Source: Chloroflexota bacterium
GTDB taxonomy: Bacteria > Chloroflexota > Dehalococcoidia > UBA2247 > RBG-13-53-26
DNA length: 62,933 nucleotides
NCBI GenBank assembly: GCA_016876035.1
Contig: VGOE01000003.1
Location: 1 to 62,933 of the forward strand
Direction of reading: 5' to 3'
The notes beneath the pieces were generated by a model. It had not been told where the DNA came from and did not search any database. It saw nothing but the letters and a program-made list of their open reading frames with translations. Made by a program: the position numbers and the translations under genes. Of the stretch, positions 35,739-49,734 are shown piece after piece; within the stretch, counting starts at the first letter, position 1, and the number at the start of each line of letters is the position of its first letter.

Positions 35739-36920
35739 ATGAAAGACGCCGCAATTTCAAGTAAGGCACGAAAGAAAGCCAAGCAAAGGATTCTCCGCAC
35801 GAAACTGTGTGACATGCTGGAGATCGAGTACCCCATTATCCTTGCGGGCATGGGTGGCTATGCTGGGCCTACCCTCGCGGCCGCAGTATCCAACGCCGGC
35901 GGACTGGGTGTCCTCGGCTGCGGAGGGATGCCGATTGATATATTGGTGGGCATGATTAAGAAGACCAAAAGCCTGACCAATAAGCCTTTTGGTGTGGATG
36001 TGCTGATGCCCTTCGGAGCGCCCGCGCCCGGCACTGAGATCCCCACCATTGAATTACCTGAGAGGCAGGTTGCCTTCACAGAGCAGTTGAGGAAAGAATT
36101 CGGAATCCCCAAGCCAAAGCATTCCAGGCCAGCAGACTTCTTCGATGTGGACCTGATGCAAAAGACGGTCGAAGTATGCTTCGAGGAGCGTGTCCCCGTT
36201 TTTGTCGCCGGGCTTGGCAATCCAGGCTGGATGATACCGCGGGCTCATGCTCAAGGGATGAAGGTCCTCGCCTGTGTTGGCAACGTGAGAAGCGCTCGCC
36301 GCGTAGCGGAGGGCGGTGTGGATATCGTTGTCGCTGCGGGATACGAAGGCGGAGGACACACCGGCCGGATCGGCACTATGGCGCTCATCCCCCAGGTCAT
36401 AGATGCTGTCTACCCTACGCCCGTGGTGGCTGCCGGGGGCATAGCCGACGGTAGAGGGGTGGCTGCCGCTTTAGCGCTGGGAGCCTGTGGGGTATGGGTG
36501 GGCACTGCCTTCATAACCTCGCATGAAGCCCATGTCGACGCTATTGAGTTGGGCCTTATGGCTCAGTGGGAGGTTGATTACTGGAAGCAGAGAATCCTCG
36601 AATGTACTGAAGAGGATACGGTGGTGACCCGATCCTATTCTGGCAAAACGATGCGCAACCTGAAGAACAAGTGGATCCAGGCGTGGGAAAGGCCAGATGC
36701 ACCCCCCACGCTCCCTATGCCGCTACAGTTCATGCTCTGCTGGGATCTGATGGAAGGCGCCAGGGAAGCCAAAATCAAGGACATTCTGCTTTGGCCCACC
36801 GGGCAGATCGGAGGAATGATCAAGGAACTGAAGAGCGCCAAGCAGATCGTCGATGAGATGGTGGACGGGGCCACCAAGATTTTGCAGGAGACGCTTCCCG
36901 CTGAGGTGACCACAAAATAA
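35739..36920 (+). CDS. Nitronate monooxygenase / FabK-like FMN enzyme
   Basis: EYPIILAGMG, AAAVSNAGGLG, PFGVD, GYEGGGHTG, AAGGIADGRG..AALALGA.GVW.GT.F. Confidence 0.88.
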   Translation: MKDAAISSKARKKAKQRILRTKLCDMLEIEYPIILAGMGGYAGPTLAAAVSNAGGLGVLGCGGMPIDILVGMIKKTKSLTNKPFGVDVLMPFGAPAPGTEIPTIELPERQVAFTEQLRKEFGIPKPKHSRPADFFDVDLMQKTVEVCFEERVPVFVAGLGNPGWMIPRAHAQGMKVLACVGNVRSARRVAEGGVDIVVAAGYEGGGHTGRIGTMALIPQVIDAVYPTPVVAAGGIADGRGVAAALALGACGVWVGTAFITSHEAHVDAIELGLMAQWEVDYWKQRILECTEEDTVVTRSYSGKTMRNLKNKWIQAWERPDAPPTLPMPLQFMLCWDLMEGAREAKIKDILLWPTGQIGGMIKELKSAKQIVDEMVDGATKILQETLPAEVTTK

Positions 36921-37511
36921 CAGTACGCGCCTAAGGCTCAACTCAAGGGGAACCGGCAGTTTCCGGATGGGGAGGACCCTGAGAAATACATGTAAGACAA
37001 TTTGTGTTCAGCAAGCCATCTGCCTAACTCCTGTTCCTGGCTGTGCCTTGAAGATTTGCTGCGTTTCGCGGGAAGCCCGGATGGGATGTTTACTTGTCAT
37101 TGCGAGGCACAAAGTGATATTGTTATGACAGTGGACTTGGTCAGTTTCATTACAAAAAGCTACGCGCCAGATAGGCTAGATTGGTGATTGAGATAAAAGT
37201 GTTCTTTGTTGCATCTCTATTATTACTGATTATTATCAAGGTCGTCTCAGGCCACTGGGGGCGATCACTGTACTTGAAGAACCTATGGTGGCACGCTGTA
37301 TCGCCTTGCTATCGACCAGAAAATCCTTATAAAAACCTTATAATTGCCCCTTGCATTTTTACGCCACCTTTATGATTTTGGGGTTACAATAGGAGCGTTT
37401 GACCAGGTCGGGAGGCAGTGTGTTTCCTTGGCCAGGAGCCGAAAGCATGCCATTACACGTTAGGTACTACTCAAGCTGGCGCAAATAGTTATCACATGAG
37501 GAGAGGGTAAA

Positions 37512-39500
37512 GTGGATACAAGCCAATATGATGAGCCTAAGATCGGGGTTTACGTTTGTCATTGCGGCACCAATATCGCCGGCAGTGTTGATGTAGGACA
37601 GGTAACTGAATTTGCCCGAGGGCTGGAAGGGGTAGTAGTATCCCGAGATTATAGTTTTGTGTGCTCTGATCCAGGGCAGAAGCTGATCCGGGAGGACATC
37701 CTTCAGCTAGGAATCAATCGGGTTGTGGTGGTAGCCTGTTCCCCTCGTCTACACGAGCAGACATTCCGCGGTGTATTGAAGGAGAGCGGGCTTAACCCCT
37801 ATATGCTGCAGCAAGCTAATATCAGAGAGCAGTGTTCTTGGCTTCATGAGCCAGGGGAGTCGGCCACTGAGAAGGCGAAGAGGTTGGTTAGAGCAGCAGT
37901 GAAGCGAGTTGCGCTGCATCACCCTTTGGAGCAGAGAGCAGTGCCAATTTTCCCCGCTACTCTGGTGGTCGGAGGCGGTATTGCTGGTATTCAGGCTGCT
38001 CTAGAGATCGCCAATTCCAACCACCTGGTGTATCTAGTGGAAAGGGAGTCCAGCATTGGAGGGCATATGGCGCAGTTCGACAAGACCTTCCCCACTCTGG
38101 ACTGCGCCGCGTGTATCCTCACCCCTAAAATGACTGACGTTGCCCGTCATCCTTACATCAGGCTGTTAACCTACAGCGAGGTGGTTGACATCTCAGGGTA
38201 TATAGGCAACTTCACCGTCAAGATCAAGCGTAAGGCGCGCTACGTGAATGAGGAAAAATGCACCGGCTGTGGTATTTGCCAGGAGAAGTGTCCGTGGACG
38301 ACATTAAGTGAGTTCGAGGTCGGCTTGAGTTTGAGGAAGGTCATTTATACCACTTCACCTCAAGCAGTGCCCAACATACCTGTTATTGATCGTGAGCGTT
38401 GTGTTTACTTCTCCAAGGGAACCTGCCGCGCCTGTGAACGCTTCTGTGAACCAAAAGCTATCAATTTCAAGCAGGAAGATATGTTGATAGAGCTGCAAGT
38501 TGGCTCTGTTATAGTGGCTACCGGATACGATACCTTTGAGCCTACCCGCGTCACGCAGTACGGCTATGGTAACTACCCCAACCTTTTCACCAGCTTGGAG
38601 TTCGAGCGGATGTGCAGCCCGTCCGGGCCAACCGGCGGTAAATTGAAACTAGCAGACGGTCGGGAACCACAGAGCATGGCCATTATCCATTGTGTAGGCA
38701 GCCGAGATAAGAATTTCAATGCCTACTGTTCTCAGATATGCTGTATGCATGCCCTGAAGTATTCCCACCTGTTCAAGGAGAAGACCGGTGGCGATGTCTA
38801 TCAAATGTATATTGATATGCGTTGCACGGGGAAAGGGTATGAAGAATTCTATGATCGGGTTCAGAAAGAGGGAGTCAACTTCGTCAGGGGCAAGGTAGCC
38901 AATGTCACTGACCGTGCCCTTGCACCTGAGGAGGAAGGAAAACTGATTGTTACCTGTGAGGATACCCTGTTGGGCAACATCGTCCGTGTCCCGGTAGATA
39001 TGGTGGTATTGTGCATAGCTGTGGAGCCGCGCAGGAATGCTGAGCAGCTAGCCCAAATATTTCGTTTGGGACGGGGCCAGGACGGGTTCTTCCTAGAGCG
39101 ACACCCGAAATTGGATCCGGTGGCTACCATGTTCGAGGGTGTATTTGTAGCGGGGTGTTGCCAGGGTCCTAAAGATATACCTCATACAGTGGCTCAAGCC
39201 TCAGCGGCCGCTGCTCGGGCTCTGGCTATGATTGCCCGAGGCAAAGTGGAAATTGAAGCAGTGACTGCTTCTGTTGATGAAAAGCGGTGCTCAGGATGCC
39301 GGTTGTGCAACGCACTCTGCCCATATGAAGCTGTCTCCTTTGATGAAGATGCCAAAGTGTCGCGGGTGTCTCAGGTTCTTTGTAAGGGGTGTGGTACATG
39401 TGCTGCGGCTTGCCCGAGCAACGCTATCTCCGTCCAGAACTTCACTCCAGCCCAGATCACAGCAGAAATTGAGGGACTGCTAGCCACGGTGAACGTCTAG
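37512..39500 (+). CDS. hdrA: Heterodisulfide reductase subunit A
   Basis: CHCGTNIAG, ACSPRLHE, NIREQCSW, GGGIAG, DKTFPTLDCAACIL, inserted 2x[4Fe-4S], SLEFER, HCVGSR...CS..CC, C-terminal 2x[4Fe-4S]. Confidence 0.95.
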   Translation: MDTSQYDEPKIGVYVCHCGTNIAGSVDVGQVTEFARGLEGVVVSRDYSFVCSDPGQKLIREDILQLGINRVVVVACSPRLHEQTFRGVLKESGLNPYMLQQANIREQCSWLHEPGESATEKAKRLVRAAVKRVALHHPLEQRAVPIFPATLVVGGGIAGIQAALEIANSNHLVYLVERESSIGGHMAQFDKTFPTLDCAACILTPKMTDVARHPYIRLLTYSEVVDISGYIGNFTVKIKRKARYVNEEKCTGCGICQEKCPWTTLSEFEVGLSLRKVIYTTSPQAVPNIPVIDRERCVYFSKGTCRACERFCEPKAINFKQEDMLIELQVGSVIVATGYDTFEPTRVTQYGYGNYPNLFTSLEFERMCSPSGPTGGKLKLADGREPQSMAIIHCVGSRDKNFNAYCSQICCMHALKYSHLFKEKTGGDVYQMYIDMRCTGKGYEEFYDRVQKEGVNFVRGKVANVTDRALAPEEEGKLIVTCEDTLLGNIVRVPVDMVVLCIAVEPRRNAEQLAQIFRLGRGQDGFFLERHPKLDPVATMFEGVFVAGCCQGPKDIPHTVAQASAAAARALAMIARGKVEIEAVTASVDEKRCSGCRLCNALCPYEAVSFDEDAKVSRVSQVLCKGCGTCAAACPSNAISVQNFTPAQITAEIEGLLATVNV

Positions 39501-39527
39501 CTGTGTCAGGAAGAAGGAGGAGGAAAA

Positions 39528-39980
39528 GTGGCTGAGTTTGAACCCAAGATAGTTGCCTTTTTATGCAACTGGTGCTCCTATGCCGGAGCAGATTTGGCAG
39601 GGACTTCGCGCATGAAGTGCCTGCCTAATGTGATTTCTATTCGACTTATGTGCAGCGGAGGACTGGACCCTACTTACGTTTTGAAGGCATTCAAGGAAGG
39701 GGCTGACGGGGTCCTGGTTTGCGGTTGCAACCCTGGTGATTGCCACTACCTTGAAGGGAACTACAAAGCATTGCGGCGTGTCTCCTTGCTGCAGAGAATG
39801 CTGCCACACTTCGGCGTCGAGCCGCGGCGTCTCCAATTGCACTGGGTGTGCGCTTCCTGTGGCGATGAATTTGTTACTGTCGTTAACGAAATGACTAATG
39901 AATTGAAGAGGTTGGGACCAATCAAGCGCGAGAGTTGGATGCCAGCAGCAGAGGAACATCATGCAATGGCACCGGGCTAA
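39528..39980 (+). CDS. mvhD: MvhD-type [2Fe-2S] subunit (copy 1, extra cysteines)
   Basis: FEPKIVAFLCNWCSYAGAD, MCSG, GADGVLV.GC.PGDCHY..GN. Confidence 0.92.
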   Translation: MAEFEPKIVAFLCNWCSYAGADLAGTSRMKCLPNVISIRLMCSGGLDPTYVLKAFKEGADGVLVCGCNPGDCHYLEGNYKALRRVSLLQRMLPHFGVEPRRLQLHWVCASCGDEFVTVVNEMTNELKRLGPIKRESWMPAAEEHHAMAPG

Positions 39981-40155
39981 GGCATAGTTTTGGGACCTGA
40001 TTGGCTGCTTCATGGATCGTTTCTCTAAGCTGGCTAAATTGTGATCGGCAGGTTATGGTAGAATTAATACAGAGGGAGTTGGGAAGCTCAGATTCGAAGC
40101 TCGAATCAAGCCCTTGAAAATGAGTAGTCTCAGTTGACCGAGGAGGTGAAGGAAA

Positions 40156-40821
40156 ATGACAAAGTGGCAGTGTGTGCAATGTGGTTACTTCTTCGACGGA
40201 ACGAGACCGCCGGAACCATGCCCTGGCTGTAAGTCAGCTTGCAGCTACACCGATGTCACCTGCTATCGCCCTGAATGTGGTGGCCCCGTGAATGCCGACC
40301 CTATGCTTCTGGGCATGATTACCAAGCGTACTGGATTAGCCGCCCCTCTACGTCCCTCACAGACGGCTGCCCCGCAGGAGGTAGTCTATGCAGAGAAAGT
40401 GAGCAAGGAAATCCTATTTCAGGGGCTGAGCGAAAAGGAGATACAGCAGGTATTGGCCACTGGTGAAATTAAGACCTATGAACCTGGCGATGTCGTGTTT
40501 AAGGAAGGCGCTGAGTCAGTGCATATCTACATTGTCGAGCAAGGGAAACTGGCCGTGCTGGCTCCAGAAGGGAAAACCGCCTATCTAGCTTCAGACGGAG
40601 ATGTTCTTGGTTGGTCGAGTTTGATGCTGCCCTACAAGCGGACTGCTTCAGCCAACGCCCTGGAAAAAAGCCGTGTTGTTGTCATCGACCACACCAAACT
40701 GCAAGACTTTTGCGCCCAGAACCCATCTATAGGCTACAAGATCACGCAAAACGTCGGGCGGATTATGGCTGCCAGGATGAGGACTGCCAAAGCGATGTCA
40801 GTGGATTTGGTCTACGGCTAA
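40156..40821 (+). CDS. Rubredoxin-like Cys domain fused to cyclic-nucleotide-binding domain
   Basis: WQCVQCGY...PPEPCPGC...DVTCYRPECG, then LFQGLSE.E, Y..G.VVF.EG, G.VLGWSSL...RTASA; no HTH. Confidence 0.75.
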   Translation: MTKWQCVQCGYFFDGTRPPEPCPGCKSACSYTDVTCYRPECGGPVNADPMLLGMITKRTGLAAPLRPSQTAAPQEVVYAEKVSKEILFQGLSEKEIQQVLATGEIKTYEPGDVVFKEGAESVHIYIVEQGKLAVLAPEGKTAYLASDGDVLGWSSLMLPYKRTASANALEKSRVVVIDHTKLQDFCAQNPSIGYKITQNVGRIMAARMRTAKAMSVDLVYG

Positions 40822-41004
40822 GGCAGCAATGAGAATTCAGTTGTCGGCTTTTGGAAGAGGTGGAAAATTTTTAGCCTCTTTTCGAGTTGGCGCATCTCCA
40901 GTCGGCGCATTCAATGAATGACTTCATGACATGCTATGGCACTCCGGTGGGGTTTACAACTGCCCACGTTTTGTGGGTACTTTCTTTGAAGGGAGCGTAG
41001 GAGT

Positions 41005-42153
41005 ATGAATGCAGTCGTGCCCTATAAGGAAGCGGTGGACGCTGTAACAGAGGCAGGCGGTGAAGCGCTGAAGCAATGCTATCAGTGCGGTCTGTGTACT
41101 GGCATCTGCCCCTGGAATCTGGTTAGAAGCTTCCCCACCCGCAAGCTAATCCATCAGGCACAGCTCGGCGTAGTCGACTTCGAAGGTGAGGACACCTGGA
41201 TATGTGCCACCTGCCGGGCCTGCGTGGTCCGCTGCCCACGCGAGGTAGCCATCATCGATATTATGAAAGCCCTGCGTGGAGTGATAGTGGAGATGGGAGC
41301 TGGCTACTGTCCCGAGTCACTCCGGGTCACATTGAAAAACATCGCCGGTGCCGGTAACCCGCTGGGAGAAGCTCCCGAAGATAGAACGGCTTGGACAAGG
41401 GACCTGAAGGTGAAGACCTTTGCCAAGGGCACCAATGTACTGTATTTTTCCTGCTGTATCCCGGCCTATGATCCTAACATCAGAAGGGTAGCTCGTGCCA
41501 CAGCCAACATCCTTAACAAAGCAGGTGTTGACTTCGGCATCCTGGGTTCCAAGGAAAGCTGCTGTGGCGAAAGCGTGCGCAAGGCGGGAAACGAAAGCCT
41601 TTTCCAGAAGCTGGCGCAGAGCAATATCAGTGCTTTTGTCGATAACGATGTCAATAGAATCGTGGTGAGCTCGCCTCACTGCTATCATTCTTTCAAAAAC
41701 GAATATCCTGCGCTGGGGGGCAAGTTTGAAGTAATGCACTTCACTCAATATCTGGCACAGCTTATCCGTGATGGTAGACTCAAGCTAACCAAAGAAGTCA
41801 AAGCAAAGGTCACCTATCATGATCCATGTTATCTTGGGCGTCACAACGATGTGTACGACGAGCCGAGAGAGGTCTTAAGAAGCATCCCCGGACTGGAGCT
41901 GGTAGAGATGGCCGACCATCGTGAAAATAGCTTTTGTTGTGGTGGTGGTGGCGGAAGGATTTGGATGGAGACCAAGAAGGGAGAGAGGCTTTCCGACCTC
42001 AGGTTGGAGCAGGCTGAAGCGACGGGGGCGAGTATATTGGTGGCTGCCTGTCCCTACTGCATAGCTAATTTTGAGGATAGCGTATTAACAATGGACAAGG
42101 GCGCTGCTATTCAGGTTAAGGACATCTCGGAATTGGTTCAAGAGGCAGTGTAA
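41005..42153 (+). CDS. HdrD/GlpC-like Fe-S protein (2x[4Fe-4S] + two CCG domains)
   Basis: CYQCGLCTGICP, CATCRACVVRCP, ESCCGE, SPHC, YHDPCYLGR, CCGGGGG, ACPYC. Confidence 0.9.
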   Translation: MNAVVPYKEAVDAVTEAGGEALKQCYQCGLCTGICPWNLVRSFPTRKLIHQAQLGVVDFEGEDTWICATCRACVVRCPREVAIIDIMKALRGVIVEMGAGYCPESLRVTLKNIAGAGNPLGEAPEDRTAWTRDLKVKTFAKGTNVLYFSCCIPAYDPNIRRVARATANILNKAGVDFGILGSKESCCGESVRKAGNESLFQKLAQSNISAFVDNDVNRIVVSSPHCYHSFKNEYPALGGKFEVMHFTQYLAQLIRDGRLKLTKEVKAKVTYHDPCYLGRHNDVYDEPREVLRSIPGLELVEMADHRENSFCCGGGGGRIWMETKKGERLSDLRLEQAEATGASILVAACPYCIANFEDSVLTMDKGAAIQVKDISELVQEAV

Positions 42154-42268
42154 GCTGTCTCTTGGGTCAGATCGATATTACCAGTTGCAGCTACCACGGG
42201 GAATGCGAGACAAACCTTAGCAAAGACCGCAAAACGGTTTAGCCTATTTGGCGGAATGCGTATTATGC

Positions 42269-42676
42269 ATGTCTAAGAGAAAGATCGCTCTGATGGACTT
42301 CGACCAACTGATTGGAAGGTTGAGGTTCAACCTGGAGAGTGCCAGGAGCGCGATAGAACATGGGGACAGCCGAGAACCCGAGGATCGGGAAGGTCTCCGA
42401 GACTATGTTAACAAGATCGAAGAGAGTATCCAAAAGCTCGAGCTGGCAAAGCAGCTATCACAAAAAGGCAGGCTGAATGGAGAAGATGTAGGAAGGGCGA
42501 TGAGTATTACCTGCTTCGGAAACATCGGCTACTGCTGCGGGCTGAAGAAAGCATGTGTTTGGAGAGATGCTTGCCGCCAAGCCTTGGGGATAGATGATGA
42601 TACTTACACTGAAGTCAAAGAGGCAGTAATTCAGGACATTCTCGAGCGTGCTAATCGGATGGACAGCGGAACTTAG
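42269..42676 (+). CDS. Hypothetical protein with Cys-rich motif resembling one repeat of methanogenesis marker domain 9
   Basis: TCFGNIGYCCGLKKACVWRDACRQALGIDDDTYTEVK; N-terminal coiled-coil-like region. Confidence 0.6.
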   Translation: MSKRKIALMDFDQLIGRLRFNLESARSAIEHGDSREPEDREGLRDYVNKIEESIQKLELAKQLSQKGRLNGEDVGRAMSITCFGNIGYCCGLKKACVWRDACRQALGIDDDTYTEVKEAVIQDILERANRMDSGT

Positions 42677-42850
42677 CACTTAGTCTGTTCAAGCCTTCGG
42701 ATACGGCCGTAGTCATAGTTAGTCAATGGCTAAAGGGAGCCCGGGCCGTAAGCGTTTATGGATCATTTGCTAGACTATCTGATTGTGAGGCAAGAGATCA
42801 ACAAACTCGACGTTGACACTCATGTTGAAGAGTGACTGGAGGTTAGAGAA

Positions 42851-44641
42851 GTGTGGATAACTGAAGATAAAGGGGTTGCCCGTGTTGAAGAGGCAGTAAA
42901 GCAATTTCTGCCACCTTGCCAGATCAAGTGTCCTATCAATGAAGATATCCAGCGCACAAATGTGCTCATCTCACTCCTTCCGGAGGATCTGGACTCGGCA
43001 AGGGAGGGGATTATCCAGATAAGCGATCACCTCTATGACAAGAACCCTTTCTTCAACATCTGCGGTTACATTTGCGGATTGTGTGAACTTGAGTGCAATT
43101 ACAAGATCAAGGGAGGTGCAGTCAGAAGAAGACTCCTCAAGAGATTTTTGTCTGATGTCTACACCTATCATCTCCCTGAGAAAAATGAACTGAATATCGT
43201 TAAGGACAAGGAGAATGTGGCTGTCATAGGCGGTGGGCCGGGTGGCTTGATGTGCGCCTATATCTTGAGCAAGAAGGGGTATAGGGTAACCATCTTCGAG
43301 GCGTCCAACCGCCTGGGTGGAGCGCTGTGGCTGATACCGAGCTATCGTTTACCCGAAGCTGTTTTGCAGACAACGCTGAACAATCTGATCAGGATTGCCG
43401 CTCTGGATGTTAGGTTTGGTGCAAAGCTGGGTGAGGGCAGGCTGACGATAGATAGGCTTAGAAACGAAGGTTACAGGGCAATTTTTCTGGCAAAAGGGAC
43501 ACCTTACCCCAGAGTGCTGACGTTCGATGGAGAGACAGTACCAGGGCAGGATCTTTCTGGGGTAATGTATGGGCATACTCTTCTTTACGAGGTTAGCCAC
43601 GGCAACATCGGGAGGGACTATTTTGAGGGGAAAAAACTGATAGTCATTGGCGGTGGGAACGTAGCCTTTGACGTTGCCAGAACGGCAAAGCGATTGGGAG
43701 GCGATGTGACTATCGTCTGTCTGGAATCTGAGGACAAGACCTCCAAGGACGGTATTCCTGCTGACGATGAAGAAATTACCGCGGCGTGGGAAGAGGGGTT
43801 AAGGATCGTTTATTCCCGTGGTGTACAGAAGATTATCGGGCAACATGGGAGATTCAAGGGCCTTGTCTGTCCGAGGTGTGTCGGTGTGTTTGATGAGACC
43901 GGATTCAACCCCAAGTTTGATTGCAGCGACTGCATTGATCTTGAAGGGGACACGCTCGTAATCACGGTAGGACAGATACCCGATAGGGCCTTTCTAAATA
44001 GAGAAGGCCTTCTGGATGAGAAAGGCCGACTTGTGGTAGACCCCATCACACTGCAGAGCTTGAGGAGAGGCTTCGTGTTCATAGGCGGGGATGTGAGGAG
44101 GATCGGCTTTATGGTCGAAGCCATGAAGGAAGGCATGGTGGCTGCCGACTCCATAGAGAGGTATTTGAGAGGCCTGGATATGAGGGAAGGCAGGAAGAGG
44201 GAATATGAAGGCTATGGGATTCCTTTGAGGAAATCGTACAAGCCTGAGGTGGAAGTGGCCTGGATACCACCAGAAAAGAGGATGCACTTCCAACTGTTTG
44301 AGAAGGGCCTTACGTTGAAAGAGGCGATTGAAGAGGCCAAGAGGTGCCTCACTTGCGGCCCCTGTGTCTCGTGTAAGGCCTGTATATCGATTGGTTTCGA
44401 GAAGTCACTGTATGCTGTTGAAGTAGACGAGCAAAGATGTAGTGGTTGCGGCATATGCGTATATGCATGCAATTATGATTCAGCCAGGCTAAGAATGGTT
44501 GAAGGGAAGACCCTCTCTACCACCGATATGTTCAGATGCAAGTCGTGTGGTATGTGTGTCGTGGCCTGCCCTTCACATGCCAGGAAGCTGGTTGACGACG
44601 ATACTGAGCGAAGGATCGAAAGTGCGTTGGCAATTCTATGA
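42851..44641 (+). CDS. GltD/NfnB/SudA-like FAD oxidoreductase with C-terminal 2x[4Fe-4S] ferredoxin
   Basis: PPCQIKCP, ICGYICGLCELEC, IGGGPGG, IPSYRLP, IGGGNVAFD, EAKRCLTC, CSGCGICVYAC, CKSCGMCVVACP. Confidence 0.85.
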   Translation: MWITEDKGVARVEEAVKQFLPPCQIKCPINEDIQRTNVLISLLPEDLDSAREGIIQISDHLYDKNPFFNICGYICGLCELECNYKIKGGAVRRRLLKRFLSDVYTYHLPEKNELNIVKDKENVAVIGGGPGGLMCAYILSKKGYRVTIFEASNRLGGALWLIPSYRLPEAVLQTTLNNLIRIAALDVRFGAKLGEGRLTIDRLRNEGYRAIFLAKGTPYPRVLTFDGETVPGQDLSGVMYGHTLLYEVSHGNIGRDYFEGKKLIVIGGGNVAFDVARTAKRLGGDVTIVCLESEDKTSKDGIPADDEEITAAWEEGLRIVYSRGVQKIIGQHGRFKGLVCPRCVGVFDETGFNPKFDCSDCIDLEGDTLVITVGQIPDRAFLNREGLLDEKGRLVVDPITLQSLRRGFVFIGGDVRRIGFMVEAMKEGMVAADSIERYLRGLDMREGRKREYEGYGIPLRKSYKPEVEVAWIPPEKRMHFQLFEKGLTLKEAIEEAKRCLTCGPCVSCKACISIGFEKSLYAVEVDEQRCSGCGICVYACNYDSARLRMVEGKTLSTTDMFRCKSCGMCVVACPSHARKLVDDDTERRIESALAIL

Positions 44642-44656
44642 ATCAAGAGGGGGCAA

Positions 44657-45076
44657 ATGGGGCATTATGAACCTAAGATAGTCTGTTTCTCGTGCAAGTT
44701 CGGCTGGGGATACCTGGGCGATGATGCTGCGCTCTCCCGCCAGATAAAGAACTGGATTCCTATAATTTGCTCCGGGAAGATTGATAGTACTCACATTCTG
44801 GACGCTTTCAAGCGGGGGGCTGACGGTGTTCTTGTACTCGGTTGTCCCGAAGGCAATTGCCATTACCAGGACGGCAATTTCGAGGCCAGGAAGAGGGTCT
44901 ATCTTCTCCAAAAGATGCTTGAGCCCTATGGAATAGAAAAGGAGAGGCTCCGCATAGTACTGTCAACGGATCCTGGTGGTACGCAGATACCGCAGCTTAT
45001 TAAGGAGATGAGTGACAGAATTGAAAAGCTTGGCCCACTGAAGAAGATAAAGGGCAAAGCTGCTCTAGTGGTCTAA
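44657..45076 (+). CDS. mvhD: MvhD-type [2Fe-2S] subunit (copy 2, divergent)
   Basis: YEPKIVCFSC, ICSGKID, GADGVLVLGCPEGNCHY.DGN, GIEKERL. Confidence 0.85.
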   Translation: MGHYEPKIVCFSCKFGWGYLGDDAALSRQIKNWIPIICSGKIDSTHILDAFKRGADGVLVLGCPEGNCHYQDGNFEARKRVYLLQKMLEPYGIEKERLRIVLSTDPGGTQIPQLIKEMSDRIEKLGPLKKIKGKAALVV

Positions 45077-45094
45077 GGGGGAAAGGAAACGAAG

Positions 45095-46072
45095 ATGGCA
45101 GAGAAACCGAAGGTTGCTATTTGCTGGCTTGGGGGCTGTGGCGGCTGCGATGAAGCGGTGGTCGATATCAATGAGGTAATCCTGCGTGTTGTAGACGCCG
45201 TTGACCTGATACTCTGGCCAGTGGCGCTGGATTTCAAGTACCATCACATTGAGGCCATGAAAGATGGTGAGATCGCCTTGAGTGTGATCAATGGACATGT
45301 CAGGAATTCAGATCACAAAGAGATAGCGGAATTACTTCGCAGAAAGTCCCAGTTGGTACTCGCTTTTGGGGCTTGTGCCTGTTTTGGAGGAACACCTGGG
45401 CTAGCAAACTTGACCACCAAAGAGGACATCTTTAACTGGGTGTATCGTGATGCTCCAACCGTGGTTAACCCAAAAGGAAACCACCCTCAACCCAAAGTCA
45501 GTGTTGACGGGAAAGAATTAACGTTACCAGAATTCTACGAACACGTCTATGCTCTGAATCAGGTGATTGATGTCGACTACTACCTCCCGGGCTGCCCACC
45601 GCCTCCTGATCTAGTAGTCAATGCTATAACTGCTGTCCTGGAAGCCAAGCTGCCCCCCAAGGGTTCGACTTTGGCACCGCATAAGGCTTTGTGTGATACC
45701 TGCCCGCGAAACAAGACAAAACCGGCTAAGATTGCTATAAGTGACATCAAGAGGATTCATGAGGTTGAGGCTGACCCTAATTCCTGCTTTTTGGTGCAGG
45801 GGATACTCTGCCTGGGGCCCGCAACGCGCGCAGGCTGTGGGGAGGCTTGCATAGACATAAACATCCCCTGTCGTGGGTGTTTTGGCCCCGTGGAGGGAGT
45901 GGCTGATGCTGGGGCAAAGTTTGCTTCTGCCTTGGCGTCGATCATCGACGTAGAGGATGAAGAAGAGGTAAAGAAGAGTATCGACACGATTGACGATGTT
46001 ATCGGCTACTTCTATCGTTTTTCCTTACCCTCTTCCATTTTGGGCAAGAAAGATCTCAAGAAGACTATTTGA
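45095..46072 (+). CDS. mvhG: Group 3c [NiFe]-hydrogenase small subunit
   Basis: WLGGCGGC, GACA.FGG, YLPGCPP, CDTC, CF...G.LCLGPATR.GC...C.....PCRGCFGP. Confidence 0.92.
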   Translation: MAEKPKVAICWLGGCGGCDEAVVDINEVILRVVDAVDLILWPVALDFKYHHIEAMKDGEIALSVINGHVRNSDHKEIAELLRRKSQLVLAFGACACFGGTPGLANLTTKEDIFNWVYRDAPTVVNPKGNHPQPKVSVDGKELTLPEFYEHVYALNQVIDVDYYLPGCPPPPDLVVNAITAVLEAKLPPKGSTLAPHKALCDTCPRNKTKPAKIAISDIKRIHEVEADPNSCFLVQGILCLGPATRAGCGEACIDINIPCRGCFGPVEGVADAGAKFASALASIIDVEDEEEVKKSIDTIDDVIGYFYRFSLPSSILGKKDLKKTI

Positions 46073-46084
46073 GGAGCGCTGAAA

Positions 46085-47548
46085 ATGACCAGAAAAGTGA
46101 CCATAAACCCGATTACCAGGCTTGAGGGTCATGGTAAGATCGAAGTCTTCCTCGATGACAAGGGTGGGGTGAGAGATGCCTACTTTCAGGTGGTAGAGTT
46201 GAGGGGCTTTGAAAGGTTCTGCCTGGGAAGGCCAGCGGAGGAGATGCCGAGGATTGTTCCGAATATATGTGGCGTTTGCCCTACGCCGCATAACATGGCA
46301 TCCACAAAGGCACTGGATGACCTGTACGGCGTTGAGCCCACGCCGACTGCCAAGCTAATCAGGCAACTCCATTACAATGCCTTCTACGTGGAAGACCATT
46401 ACATCCACTTCTTCTTCCTGGCTGCACCCGATTTCGTGGTTGGACCGGACGCTGACCCTGCTGAGAGGAACATCGTCGGCGTAATCCAAAAGGTCGGGTT
46501 GGAGATCGGCGGCAAGGTGATCGATATCCGAAAAAGGTGCCGAGATATAATCAGGCTCATTGCCAGTAAGCCATGCCATCCCGAAGGTGGATTGCCCGGC
46601 GGAGTTTCGAGGGGAATCACTGCCGAGGAACGGGAATGGATACGCAAGACTGCTGACGATTCTGTGGAATTTGCCCAGTTTGCCCTGAAGCTGTTCAAGA
46701 ATGTTGTCCTTGATAACAAGCACTACCTCGATCTGGTACTTAGTGATGCCTACAAGCTACAGACCTACTACATGAGTCTTGTCGATGAGAATAAGAAGGT
46801 GAATCTCTATGAGGGTAAGTTAAGAGTCGTGGATCCTCGCGGAAAGGAACACGCCCTTTTTGATCCGCATGACTACATTGATTACATAGGTGAATGGGTA
46901 GAGCCCTGGACGTATATAAGGTTGACTCATCTGAGAAAGGTAGGCTGGAGCGGTTTGATTGAGGGTGATAAGACATCGCTGTACCGTGTTGGCCCTCTTG
47001 CCCGACTCAATGTAGCTGAAGGTATGGCCACGCCCCTAGCCCAGAAGGAGTATGAGCAGATGCATAAGACGCTGGGAGGCAGACCGAGTCACCATACCTT
47101 GGCTTTCCACTGGGCCAGACTGATCGAGGCACTTCAGGCTGCTGAAGATATGCAGAAAATTGCTAATGACCCCATGCTGACTGGCAAGGACCTGCGTAAT
47201 TTGAATTACAGGTTGAAGAAAGTTGGCGTCGGTTGCGTTGAGGCGGCTCGGGGAACATTGATCCATCATTATGAGACGGATGACAATGGAATAATAACCA
47301 GGGTGAACCTCATAGTGGCCACCCAGCACAATGCAGCCCCTATGTGTCTATCGGTGAAAAAGGCGGCTATGGAGTTCGTCAAGGACCACAAGGTGAAAGA
47401 GGGTATGCTGAACATGGTGGAAATGGCCTTCAGGCCTTACGACCCGTGTCTTGCCTGTGCGACGCATGCGCTTCCGGGTGAAATGCCCCTGAACATCAAT
47501 ATAAGGGACAAAGACGGCAGCATAGTCCAAACACTCAAGAGGCCGTAG
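46085..47548 (+). CDS. mvhA: Group 3c [NiFe]-hydrogenase large subunit
   Basis: PITRLEGH, ICGVCP..H, EA.RG.L.HHY, YDPCLACATH plus a cleavable C-terminal tail. Confidence 0.92.
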   Translation: MTRKVTINPITRLEGHGKIEVFLDDKGGVRDAYFQVVELRGFERFCLGRPAEEMPRIVPNICGVCPTPHNMASTKALDDLYGVEPTPTAKLIRQLHYNAFYVEDHYIHFFFLAAPDFVVGPDADPAERNIVGVIQKVGLEIGGKVIDIRKRCRDIIRLIASKPCHPEGGLPGGVSRGITAEEREWIRKTADDSVEFAQFALKLFKNVVLDNKHYLDLVLSDAYKLQTYYMSLVDENKKVNLYEGKLRVVDPRGKEHALFDPHDYIDYIGEWVEPWTYIRLTHLRKVGWSGLIEGDKTSLYRVGPLARLNVAEGMATPLAQKEYEQMHKTLGGRPSHHTLAFHWARLIEALQAAEDMQKIANDPMLTGKDLRNLNYRLKKVGVGCVEAARGTLIHHYETDDNGIITRVNLIVATQHNAAPMCLSVKKAAMEFVKDHKVKEGMLNMVEMAFRPYDPCLACATHALPGEMPLNINIRDKDGSIVQTLKRP

Positions 47549-47891
47549 CTCAGAGTATCTTCTGCCCTGACACCACATTCTAGCCCATCTTGGGTGGGAT
47601 AGTAGGGAGCGCCCCATCCACCTGGGATAACGCTAGGCAGTTGGACGTTTTGCCTCACATTCCTCCATGGTAATTCTATTACCTTCAGGAAGTTTCTTAT
47701 GAATCGTCTGAGTGCACAGCCTTGAACTGTTGTGCAATGCGTTATAATATTAGATTGTGGTAGGTGGGGGGTTGCATAGTATGGCTAAGAGAGGACGCCG
47801 ATTAGACGAGAACAGAAATCAAGGAAGTTGGAGGGAGCTGTTTACAAGATATTTGGAACCCCCCCTTTGGCTATCGATGTTTTAGGCACAA

Positions 47892-48113
47892 ATGAAATAC
47901 ACTGTCATAATCGAGAAAGGTAGTGAATCGGGCTACGTGGCTTATGCTCCTGCCCTGAAGGGCTGCATCTCCCAGGGTGCAACTAGGGAAGAAACCCTGA
48001 GGAACATAAAGGAAGCCATTGAAGCCTATGTCGAAGCTCTGCTTGAGGATGGGCTGCCTGTCCCTACAGAGGTAGGCAAACATACTGTGGAGCTTGAGGT
48101 TCCCACTAGGTGA
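47892..48113 (+). CDS. hicB: HicB-family antitoxin (short, no DNA-binding domain)
   Basis: YVAYAPALKGCISQG.TREE.L.NIKEAI..Y.E.L; 73 aa. Confidence 0.9.
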   Translation: MKYTVIIEKGSESGYVAYAPALKGCISQGATREETLRNIKEAIEAYVEALLEDGLPVPTEVGKHTVELEVPTR

Positions 48114-48343
48114 CCAAGCTACCTCGGGGATTGTCTGGCAAAGAAGTGATCAAGGTGCTAGAGAGGGCGGGGTTCTATATCAAAAGGCGCAAGGGAAGCC
48201 ATGTTGTAATGCGCAGAGACAATCCTTTTACTCAGGTCGTAGTGCCAGACCATAATAATAAGAGCCTTGATACCGGAACGCTAGCGTGGATACTCGATGG
48301 GGCTAACCTATCAGTCCAAGAGTTTACAAAACTTATTAACTAG
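48110..48343 (+). CDS. hicA: HicA-family toxin (mRNA interferase)
   Basis: LSGKEVIK.L...GF...RRKGSH, VVVPDH, GTL..IL; GTGA overlap with hicB. Confidence 0.9.
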   Translation: MTKLPRGLSGKEVIKVLERAGFYIKRRKGSHVVMRRDNPFTQVVVPDHNNKSLDTGTLAWILDGANLSVQEFTKLIN

Positions 48344-48366
48344 TCCTTGCAGTTGCGCAAGGTAGC

Positions 48367-49734
48367 ATGGTTGGGGCCACTTCTTGCTTTGAGTGCTGTC
48401 CGGACGCCACAAAGGTCAGTCGTTTCCGTTTCTCGCTGCCACCATCTGTGATGCGCTCTTTGTTCATCAACCCAGTCGTCCATGTAAGACAAGCCCACAG
48501 GACTAGACGGGCGGCAATCGCCGCCATAGCTGCCTTCGGGGCTATTCTGGCTGGTGTGTTCCTGATGTCGGCTGTCCATGATGCGGCACTTAGTGCGGTA
48601 CTTGGCACGGTGGCACTAGCTTGTCTTGGAGCTGTCATTGGCCCTTTTACGGGAGGCAATGAAGCAGAATGGATTAGGTATCTAGAGACGTTAGTGAGGA
48701 CTGAGAGAGACAGGCTACTGGCAATACTGAACACTATGGGAGAGGGAGTGGCTATCATTGGGCCAGACTACAAGATACGCTTTATGAATCCAAGCATGTT
48801 AAGAGAATTCGGCGACGGTGTCGGTAGCTATTGTTATAAGCATCTCCATGGCTTCGATGAGCCATGCGATGAGATGTGCAGGTTACGGGAGGTCATAATT
48901 GGTTCAACTGAGAGGTCGGAATATCACTTTCCAGACGGGAGAATATATGAAGTAGTATCGTCGCCCTTTGCTGATTCCGACCAGGTGTCTTGTATGCTGG
49001 CCACTTTCAGAAACATCACCCATCAGAAGCTGGTCGAGCTTGAGCTTGTCAAACTTAACCAGCTTAAATCAGAACTTCTATCCAATGTCTCTCACGAACT
49101 CCGATCACCATTGACCTCGATAAAGGGGATCATCAGCAGCCTGTTGCAAGAAGACATAGGGTGGGATAACGAGTCACGGAAGATGCTTTTGATTGGAATG
49201 AGCGAGGAGACGGATAGGTTGGCGAGCCTGGTTACCAATTTGCTCAACATGAGCAAATTGGATGCCGGTGTTTGGGGGCCAGAGAGGGATCGCTGTAGTG
49301 TCCCGGAGATTGTCACTGAGACGCTGGAACGCCAGAAGTGGGTTAGCAAGGATCATATATTTGAAACCGAGTTCGCCCCGGACTTACCAGAAGTCTTCGC
49401 CGACTCTAACCAGATAAAGCAAGTTTTGATCAACTTGCTGGAGAACGCGGTGGCTTACTCCGAGGAAGGAACTAAGATAGTGGTCGAGGCAAAGAGGATC
49501 AATAACGAAGTGGAGGTGACCGTATCTGACCAGGGTGTTGGAATCCCGCCGGGGGAGCTGGAGAAGATATTTGACAAGTTCTATCGGGGTACACAGAAGC
49601 GTCGGCGTCCTGGGGGTACCGGGCTGGGCCTGGCTATTGGCAGAGCCATTGTTCTGACCCATGGCGGGCGCATATGGGCCGAAAGTGAAATCGGCCGCGG
49701 CTCCACCTTCCATTTCACTTTGCCGGCTATCTAG
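48367..49734 (+). CDS. Membrane PAS-domain sensor histidine kinase (orphan); start uncertain
   Basis: Two TM segments, PAS-like region, SHELRSPL, QVL.NLLENA, DQG.GI, GTGLGL. Confidence 0.88.
   Translation: MVGATSCFECCPDATKVSRFRFSLPPSVMRSLFINPVVHVRQAHRTRRAAIAAIAAFGAILAGVFLMSAVHDAALSAVLGTVALACLGAVIGPFTGGNEAEWIRYLETLVRTERDRLLAILNTMGEGVAIIGPDYKIRFMNPSMLREFGDGVGSYCYKHLHGFDEPCDEMCRLREVIIGSTERSEYHFPDGRIYEVVSSPFADSDQVSCMLATFRNITHQKLVELELVKLNQLKSELLSNVSHELRSPLTSIKGIISSLLQEDIGWDNESRKMLLIGMSEETDRLASLVTNLLNMSKLDAGVWGPERDRCSVPEIVTETLERQKWVSKDHIFETEFAPDLPEVFADSNQIKQVLINLLENAVAYSEEGTKIVVEAKRINNEVEVTVSDQGVGIPPGELEKIFDKFYRGTQKRRRPGGTGLGLAIGRAIVLTHGGRIWAESEIGRGSTFHFTLPAI

Follow-up and report, generated by a model that had tools for sequence, protein, structure and literature searches.

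A BamD-type fused HdrC/HdrB protein is a conserved partner of HdrA-MvhD in a Dehalococcoidia genome and most likely transfers electrons rather than reducing a disulfide

Genes of the HdrA and Mvh type are common in bacteria without coenzyme M (CoM) or coenzyme B (CoB), and the substrate of their Hdr arm is a long-standing question. That question is posed again by a row of nine genes on contig C3 (VGOE01000003.1) of a Chloroflexota draft genome (2.53 Mb, 97.7% complete); the entire 62.9-kb contig was analysed and is referred to as the window herein. All nine genes lie on the + strand in the same orientation, from 37512 to 47548. An earlier note on this DNA had drawn attention to the first four, read as an HdrA, an MvhD, a sensor-like protein and a soluble protein with two [4Fe-4S] and two CCG motifs, and had proposed a bifurcating complex of the HdrA-HdrD type that acts on a disulfide or another acceptor. 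Open reading frames (ORFs) and domain matches confirmed the four genes on the + strand, at 37512..39500, 39528..39980, 40156..40821 and 41005..42153. We found that the fourth product, a fused HdrC+HdrB protein, is a real and conserved partner of HdrA-MvhD, and that its likeliest role is that of an output arm for electron transfer, not of a disulfide reductase. The proposed HdrA-HdrD pairing held, given the residues kept in HdrA and the conservation of the gene pair, whereas a disulfide acceptor is unlikely because the fused protein shows a signature of the BamD and EMO type (Ser223, His225, Trp320 and Tyr351).

The fused protein (41005..42153, +; 382 aa) matches Pfam CCG (E 2e-37) and HdrC-type Fer4 domains. 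Two cubane motifs of the CxxCxxCxxxC form (C25/28/31/35 and C67/70/73/77) are combined with two CCG domains, and since no hydrophobic stretch is present (maximum Kyte-Doolittle-19 value, 1.44) the protein is predicted to be soluble. Among solved structures it is closest to M. smegmatis EtfD, in the soluble region of that protein (9ojn_A, E 2.5e-66), and not to HdrB or HdrC; HdrC chains are matched by its N-terminus (E 1e-19 to 1e-20) and HdrB by its C-terminus. An AF2 model (pLDDT 89.9) returned EtfD as its top Foldseek match over the full length (TMq 0.83), and HdrB and HdrC by halves only.

The motifs that would hold the non-cubane clusters differ between the two CCG domains. The proximal motif is complete (C275, C311, C312, C349, C352) and the distal one is altered (C150, C151, C186, C187, Ser223, C226), so the two full C..CCG..CxxC motifs (10 Cys) of catalytic HdrB are not present, Ser223 standing at the site of HdrB Cys78. 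The pocket positions hold His225, Trp320 and Tyr351, the first of them within the local string Ser223-Pro-His225-Cys226. In the catalytic HdrB 5odc_B, the equivalents of Ser223/His225/Trp320/Tyr351 are Cys78/Gly80/Ala202/Phe233, and judged from sequence alone the fused protein would not have an open CoM/CoB pocket. The spacing of H225, W320 and Y351 (95 and 31 residues) equals that of His230, Trp325 and Tyr356 in BamD, and this is the sole such triple in the protein; this equivalence was drawn from the spacing and from homologues encoded in bam clusters, the sequence and coordinates of the G. metallireducens protein having no part in it. In BamD of G. metallireducens these three residues fill the heterodisulfide (CoM-S-S-CoB) site, and a Cys-to-Ser change makes the distal cluster a non-cubane [3Fe-4S] (bioRxiv 10.64898/2026.04.10.717634). 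His225 aligns with EtfD His583, which completes the proximal non-cubane cluster and renders it non-catalytic, the distal site being a linear [3Fe-4S] (PMC13083937). In the EMO of S. aciditrophicus (SaEMO) the CoM site is blocked by this His, the distal cluster is a [4Fe-5S], and the electron-transferring flavoprotein (ETF) docks at both clusters (10.64898/2026.08.18.745454). The Ser/His/Trp/Tyr pattern is dominant among 111 homologues, with Ser223 in about 98 of them. Ser223, His225 and Trp320 do not vary, and Tyr351 hardly does, across an alignment of 34 sequences in which BamDs of bam clusters are represented. The fused protein carries the signature of BamD and of EMO/EtfD, not that of catalytic HdrB.

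Could it be a true HdrD-type disulfide reductase all the same, with electrons passing to ferredoxin and to a bacterial disulfide such as a small thiol pair, a protein disulfide or a trisulfide? All five cysteines of the proximal CCG motif are in place, as are five in the distal motif if Cys150 is counted, but the HdrB Cys78 equivalent is a serine, His225, Trp320 and Tyr351 match those residues of BamD that reportedly fill the heterodisulfide site, and the equivalent His ligates the proximal cluster in EtfD and SaEMO, rendering that cluster non-catalytic. Of the NCBIfam models, the fused protein best matches that of thiol:fumarate reductase TfrB (C-terminal part; 167 bits, below cut-off), an enzyme that uses thiols, and canonical HdrABC homologues in non-methanogens are widely presumed to reduce unidentified disulfides. 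Pfam ComA, for CoM synthesis, had no match in the genome, which is 97.7% complete (CoB synthesis genes were not searched for), and a DsrC-type acceptor was set aside, DsrC not being found there either; since neither was found, a non-disulfide acceptor fits this genome. We consider disulfide reduction an improbable function for the protein.

The association with HdrA was examined in 80 loci retrieved from species genomes by means of an alignment of the fused protein, and in 20 larger loci out of 201 genomes sampled from the class. Linkage was counted in the 81 homologues flanked on each side by 2.5 kb or more: 70 have an hdrA-like gene no more than 1.2 kb from the fusion gene, usually followed by mvhD, and in 5 of the other 11 hdrA lies within 6 kb; these 5 include the window and locus L012. 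The best 29 loci of the class sample repeat the linkage. The loci were picked by likeness to the query and are not independent samples; even so, the pairing spans Chloroflexota, Desulfobacterota, Acidobacteriota, Bacillota, Planctomycetota and one Bathyarchaeota metagenome-assembled genome (MAG). The common gene order is hdrD-like, hdrA, mvhD; the order in the window (hdrA, mvhD, accessory gene, hdrD-like) was seen only in L012/L013, L016 and L064. Contig C61 of the same genome (L001, 395-9929) carries hdrD-like, hdrA and mvhD genes packed 5 nt apart, with a fused protein and an HdrA 65% and 64% identical to those of the window, and this module is a co-duplicated copy. One condition that the earlier note had named against its proposal, a CCG protein unlinked in relatives, is contradicted by the survey.

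In a quick FastTree phylogeny, rooted by midpoint only, the proteins linked to BamB formed one clade of 50 rows (support 100). The fused protein fell in the sister clade (24 rows, support 99), whose members are of the Dehalococcoidia type and stand beside single HdrAs and often Mvh hydrogenases; its nearest protein relatives are named Dehalococcoidia or Chloroflexota. It is 55% identical to the BamD of a bam cluster from Syntrophorhabdaceae (L044), a row that comprises a bamB of the aldehyde:ferredoxin oxidoreductase (AOR) type, bamC, bamD, a double-HdrA bamE, bamF, and nuoE-like and nuoF-like genes. The cysteine beside Cys151 is kept in 11 of the 11 Mvh-linked members, at a position that is Gly in 30 of 40 BamB-linked ones; with Cys150 in the sister clade, the distal cluster may therefore differ again from that of BamD. 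A search of the genome of the window for BamB gave no orthologue, the best match having about 30% identity. This genome holds 18 genes of the AOR family, none of them a close orthologue of BamB (about 31% identity at most to one from a bam cluster); about a dozen score lower and make up a subgroup with lengths of roughly 650-680 aa. Complete-looking bamB-bamC-bamD-bamE-bamF rows were observed in two Dehalococcoidia-class genomes (L143, G012:C41; L144, G007:C133), with BamBs that share 68-83% identity with the BamB of a Syntrophorhabdaceae MAG.

The HdrA partner (37512..39500, +; 662 aa) is a canonical single-copy HdrA flavoprotein, with an N-terminal domain, a core of the thioredoxin reductase (TrxR)/flavin adenine dinucleotide (FAD) type, and inserted and C-terminal ferredoxin domains (5odc_A, E 8e-224; NCBIfam HdrA2, 833 bits). 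When compared with HdrA of M. thermolithotrophicus (5odc_A), every Cys motif aligned over residues 7-657. The residues of 5ODC HdrA linked to bifurcation are K409 and E356 (PMC12054007). E356 aligns with E365, within LEFER, where the earlier note had placed the glutamate. The lysine it had placed in FDKTFP is likewise retained, but elsewhere: K409 corresponds to K416, within CCMHALKYSH, and the FDKTFP lysine is a different residue, K191, the counterpart of 5ODC K187. The protein has the FAD domain, the six [4Fe-4S] motifs and the K409/E356 pair expected of HdrA in HdrABC, and with K416/E365 and all Fe-S motifs retained it looks competent for bifurcation. The second Cys motif of its inserted ferredoxin domain (residues ~297-314; window 38400-38470) is spaced CX7CXXCXXXC, owing to a five-residue insertion (YFSKG) relative to 5ODC HdrA. 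A Methanosarcina HdrA2-type enzyme (an HdrA-MvhD fusion that uses F420H2) was set aside: HdrA2 is the best NCBIfam model but scores below its cut-off, and hdrA and mvhD are separate genes here. The MvhD (39528..39980, +; 150 aa), a [2Fe-2S] adaptor (Pfam FlpD, E 7e-51; NCBIfam VhuD, 133 bits), starts 27 nt past the end of hdrA and also matches the MvhD part of the HdrA2 model.

Does the fused protein replace HdrB and HdrC, as the earlier note had it? Within the window it does: the only CCG domains on the contig are those in the fusion gene, and the Flx-type probes gave nothing on it. HdrB/HdrC-like tblastn matches fell on other contigs, and across the genome the statement fails, as contig C46 (L003, 11123-18804, minus strand) encodes an HdrA, hdrC (190 aa), hdrB (292 aa), mvhD, mvhG and mvhA. 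The C46 HdrA (1115 aa) carries an inserted GltD/NAD(P)-binding domain. A canonical pair thus exists with its own HdrA and hydrogenase, so the genome holds canonical and fused output arms, each with an HdrA of its own; because the separate hdrC-hdrB pair is kept for another HdrA, the two arms do not behave as interchangeable copies. Flx-type genes were not found: no Fer4_22 match lay above cut-off genome-wide, DHODB_Fe-S_bind was matched only on contig C29, and the window contig has neither. A third and more distant hdrD-like/hdrA/mvhD module lies on contig C1 (L002, 7140-14839); its HdrA is fused to MvhD and contains an in-frame TGA (probable selenocysteine). Contig C61 also bears a second, distant hdrD-like gene (33% identical, with a canonical CxxC and Glu at the pocket His site), a GltD-HdrA fusion of the HdrL type, and an HdrA containing an in-frame TGA. 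In two other Dehalococcoidia genomes (L141, G197:C23; L142, G078:C1), hdrC-hdrB-hdrA-mvhD and hdrD-like-hdrA-mvhD-mvhG-mvhA stand in tandem on the same strand, and in these the canonical and BamD-type arms coexist side by side.

Beyond the four genes of the earlier note, the row runs on to 47548 with genes that are conserved with the locus. A GltD/NfnB-like NAD(P)-binding Fe-S flavoprotein (42851..44641, +; 596 aa; Pfam Pyr_redox_2, Fer4_20 and Fer4_7; NCBIfam PRK12771, 307 bits) ends in an HdrA-type 2x[4Fe-4S] domain that matches HdrA2 positions 569-627, and is a candidate module for NAD(P)H input or output. It is followed by a second mvhD (44657..45076, +; Pfam FlpD, E 6e-31), by mvhG for the small subunit of a group 3c-type [NiFe] hydrogenase (45095..46072, +; NCBIfam VhuG, 213 bits; Pfam Oxidored_q6), and by mvhA for the large subunit (46085..47548, +; NCBIfam VhuA, 400 bits; Pfam NiFeSe_Hases). 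MvhA, MvhG and MvhD are thus encoded together with HdrA, as in group 3c (Mvh-type) systems, although the VhuA (400), VhuG (213) and VhuD (87-133) bit scores are all under the NCBIfam equivalog cut-offs, which are tuned to methanogens. No membrane protein gene occurs in the row (HdrE was not searched for in the genome). A promoter and terminator scan of 36800-48500 gave counts equal to those of shuffled controls.

The layout of the row raises the possibility that two enzymes are encoded side by side, one a hydrogenase linked to NAD(P) (GltD-like protein, MvhD2, MvhG, MvhA) and the other an HdrA-MvhD1-fusion enzyme apart from it, whose donor would be reduced ferredoxin, NAD(P)H via a diffusible carrier, or formate. 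From the GltD-like gene through mvhA, where the hydrogenase genes come with an mvhD of their own, the gaps are 12-18 nt, compared with 94-183 nt between the upstream genes; the HdrA-type ferredoxin tail of the GltD-like protein could bind MvhD; and the paralogous modules on C61 and C1 have no adjoining hydrogenase. Yet compact hdrD-like, hdrA, mvhD, mvhG, mvhA operons occur in Dehalococcoidia genomes (L128, L132, L138, L141 and L142), where a single MvhD links hdrD-like-hdrA to mvhG-mvhA without a GltD-like gene. In L012 the nine-gene row is intact, all nine genes being syntenic with 65-86% protein identity, and on C46 the GltD domain lies inside an HdrA that adjoins hdrCB-mvhDGA, which suggests that GltD, HdrA and Mvh cooperate. 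We hold the two-enzyme arrangement to be possible but do not favour it.

If not a disulfide, what would receive electrons from the fused protein? In the benzoyl-CoA reductase complex, cryo-tomography has placed ETF at BamD, as the high-potential acceptor of the HdrA-type BamE (bioRxiv 10.64898/2026.04.10.717634), and by analogy ETF is our leading candidate. The genome has four etfAB sets, some beside acyl-CoA dehydrogenases. Among the homologues, etf linkage was seen only in three bam clusters and at two further loci: in L093 the fusion gene is directly followed by etfBA, and in L150 (G173:C67, 2365-5837) from a relative of the class, a homologue 57% identical to the fused protein lies 115 nt from, and divergent to, etfB-etfA-enoyl-CoA hydratase, standing alone without an adjoining hdrA and with housekeeping genes for signal peptidase II and GluRS on its other side. 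As no etf is linked within the clade of the window, the assignment to ETF is built on BamD/EMO homology together with these two distant loci. EtfA is present in about 31 of 33 genomes with soluble BamD-like proteins (the two without it are 84% complete) versus 180 of 201 genomes of the class, a co-occurrence of low power since EtfA is this frequent regardless. Complex predictions of the fused protein with EtfA and EtfB of contig C4, made with small alignments, gave ipSAE values of 0.00 and 0.01 (mark, 0.32), which weigh on neither side of the question.

Other proteins offer a different answer, in which the acceptor is the rubredoxin-like/cNMP protein, the small Cys-rich ORF or a membrane partner, and not ETF. 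The first of these (40156..40821, +; 221 aa) combines a rubredoxin-like Cys cluster with a domain of the cyclic nucleotide monophosphate (cNMP)-binding type (Pfam cNMP_binding, E 8e-17) and has no helix-turn-helix. Its gene lies directly after mvhD in the window, L012, L019 and L139, yet the protein is present in only 4 of the 24 clade members, its N-terminal match to RUBY_RBDX (25.8 bits) is slightly below the Pfam cut-off, and the second domain suggests a sensor. The small Cys-rich ORF (42248..42676, +; 142 aa) has a weak methanogenesis-marker-9-like domain (NCBIfam TIGR03277, 34.8 bits, below cut-off) and keeps its position in window-type clusters, being syntenic in L012, L016 and L064. For a membrane partner, contig C28 encodes a 590-aa membrane-type HdrD-like protein. 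Although etf is unlinked throughout the clade of the window, which would suit such acceptors, both solved relatives of the fused protein have ETF as their acceptor or donor, and we judge an acceptor of this kind unlikely.

The C28 gene (L005, 6569-8591, minus strand) codes for two [4Fe-4S] motifs and a single CCG domain, together with some 280 additional residues at the N-terminus; a second CCG domain lies just downstream in another frame, pointing to a possible frameshift or assembly error, and a 541-aa MvhD-like polyferredoxin precedes the gene. Its product could be the membrane-type (EMO/HdrF-like) relative in this genome. Most Dehalococcoidia genomes of the sample encode a protein of 650-750 aa in which the C-terminal 320 residues share 40-45% identity with the fused protein; these are EMO/EtfD-type proteins and often adjoin etfA (e.g. 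G128:C3, G025:C21 and G095:C73). In the genome of the window no 650-750-aa match of the EMO/EtfD type was found at E 1e-60 or better.

On balance we favour the reading that the locus encodes the core of an HdrA-type complex for flavin-based bifurcation or confurcation, in which the fused arm wires electrons to a protein, ETF being the likeliest. The fused protein would sit on the TrxR domain of HdrA, following the example of BamDEF in class II benzoyl-CoA reductase. The high-potential electron would travel from the bifurcating FAD through the two cubane and two non-cubane clusters to a protein docked at the latter, most plausibly ETF rather than a disulfide, while the low-potential electron would leave by the inserted ferredoxin domain of HdrA to ferredoxin. 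The mid-potential donor is likeliest H2, supplied through MvhAG-MvhD. Because the GltD-like gene and mvhD2 precede the hydrogenase genes, NAD(P)H may be a second input or output, and through the GltD-like flavoprotein it may add to or replace H2 as the input. At low H2 the reaction may reverse. A single soluble complex of Mvh, HdrA-MvhD and the BamD-type protein, coupling H2 with ferredoxin and ETF in either direction, is put forward as a tentative extension.

The same parts could also be arranged to work in the opposite sense, with reduced ETF from acyl-CoA oxidation and reduced ferredoxin merging at HdrA to yield H2 or NAD(P)H. Acyl-CoA dehydrogenase genes lie beside etfBA in the genome, HdrA-type modules are reversible in principle (PMC12054007), and the route from ETF to EMO is 'uphill' in syntrophs (10.64898/2026.08.18.745454). 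Group 3c hydrogenases characterised to date, as generally known for Mvh-Hdr, oxidise H2, and sequence carries no information on the direction of electron flow. We think confurcation as the working direction rather doubtful.

Several observations weigh against the bifurcating complex with ETF as acceptor. The fused protein sits outside the BamB-linked clade, and its function could have diverged. Cys150 might restore a five-Cys distal cluster. In the window hdrA is separated from the fusion gene by mvhD and the accessory gene, with gaps of 175-183 nt. No etf gene was found within 10 kb of the window gene or of any other member of its Mvh-linked sister clade. The hydrogenase, encoded with an MvhD of its own and the GltD-like gene, may serve the GltD-like protein rather than HdrA.

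If a single complex is formed, it would provide a membrane-free link between electrons from acyl-CoA/beta-oxidation and hydrogen in Dehalococcoidia, and would supply the numerous bacterial 'Hdr-Mvh' complexes lacking a heterodisulfide with a concrete acceptor. If the hydrogenase belongs to it, Dehalococcoidia, which are abundant in anoxic sediments, would possess an H2:ETF/ferredoxin bifurcating enzyme. Taken with the BamD and EMO/EtfD structures, this locus and its relatives suggest a testable answer for a large subfamily, namely that the Hdr arm would be a wire to a flavoprotein carrier instead of a disulfide reductase. For annotation, genes for soluble 'HdrD' or '(Fe-S)-binding protein' products with Ser-x-His-Cys, Trp and Tyr at these positions should not be taken as a sign of heterodisulfide metabolism. 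In the literature searched, no characterised Mvh-HdrA complex with a BamD-type arm was found.

How does the locus compare with known systems? FlxABCD-HdrABC of Desulfovibrio is likewise a bacterial HdrA-based bifurcation system with an MvhD-like adaptor, but its HdrB and HdrC are separate, and Flx-type genes were not found in this genome. As a pattern the gene arrangement is not new: soluble HdrD genes beside hdrA/mvhD were described in 2009 in Desulfobacterium autotrophicum HRM2 (PMC2702500). There too, proteins homologous to HdrC and HdrB and without transmembrane parts are encoded at hdrA/mvhD loci; that work was descriptive, took the proteins as heterodisulfide reductases, and has no hydrogenase link of the present layout. 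MvhAGD-HdrABC of hydrogenotrophic methanogens (5ODC) shares an HdrA with K409/E356 and all clusters, and has homologues of MvhD, MvhG and MvhA in the row. Here, by contrast, HdrB and HdrC are fused, the HdrB Cys78 equivalent is Ser, Gly80/Ala202/Phe233 of HdrB are replaced by His/Trp/Tyr, the row has a second MvhD and a GltD-like flavoprotein, and ComA was not found.

The EMO/EtfD proteins, ETF:(methyl)menaquinone oxidoreductases (9OJN), are the best PDB match by sequence and fold, with the His that caps the proximal cluster conserved and a variable distal motif: the fused protein keeps the CCG pair and loses the first Cys of the CxxC, MsEMO has C-T-G, and SaEMO has Gly for the last Cys. It differs in having no membrane/heme b domain, the 9ojn match beginning at chain residue 399, and in having HdrA, not the quinone pool, as its partner. 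The Bam[(BC)2DEFGHI]2 complex known from cryo-electron microscopy resembles the locus in setting a fused HdrC+HdrB subunit beside an HdrA-type flavoprotein and an MvhD-type adaptor. BamD itself is, like the fused protein, a single soluble chain that combines two cubane motifs with two CCG domains and has the same 95/31 His/Trp/Tyr spacing and a Cys-to-Ser change in the distal motif, whereas the fused protein belongs to the sister clade and has the extra Cys150. In place of the fused double HdrA of BamE there is a single canonical HdrA of 662 aa, and in place of the long BamF a short, selenocysteine-free MvhD; no BamB/BamC tungsten (W-AOR) module is encoded with the fusion gene, and the input genes are those of an Mvh hydrogenase and a GltD-like protein, not BamGHI. 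Soluble HdrD at hdrA/mvhD loci (2009) and the structure of BamDEF were thus known already, and what we describe is conserved rather than rare. Only a small lineage shows this gene order and the two accessory genes, and the canonical HdrA and Mvh/GltD input set the locus apart from BamEF and BamGHI.

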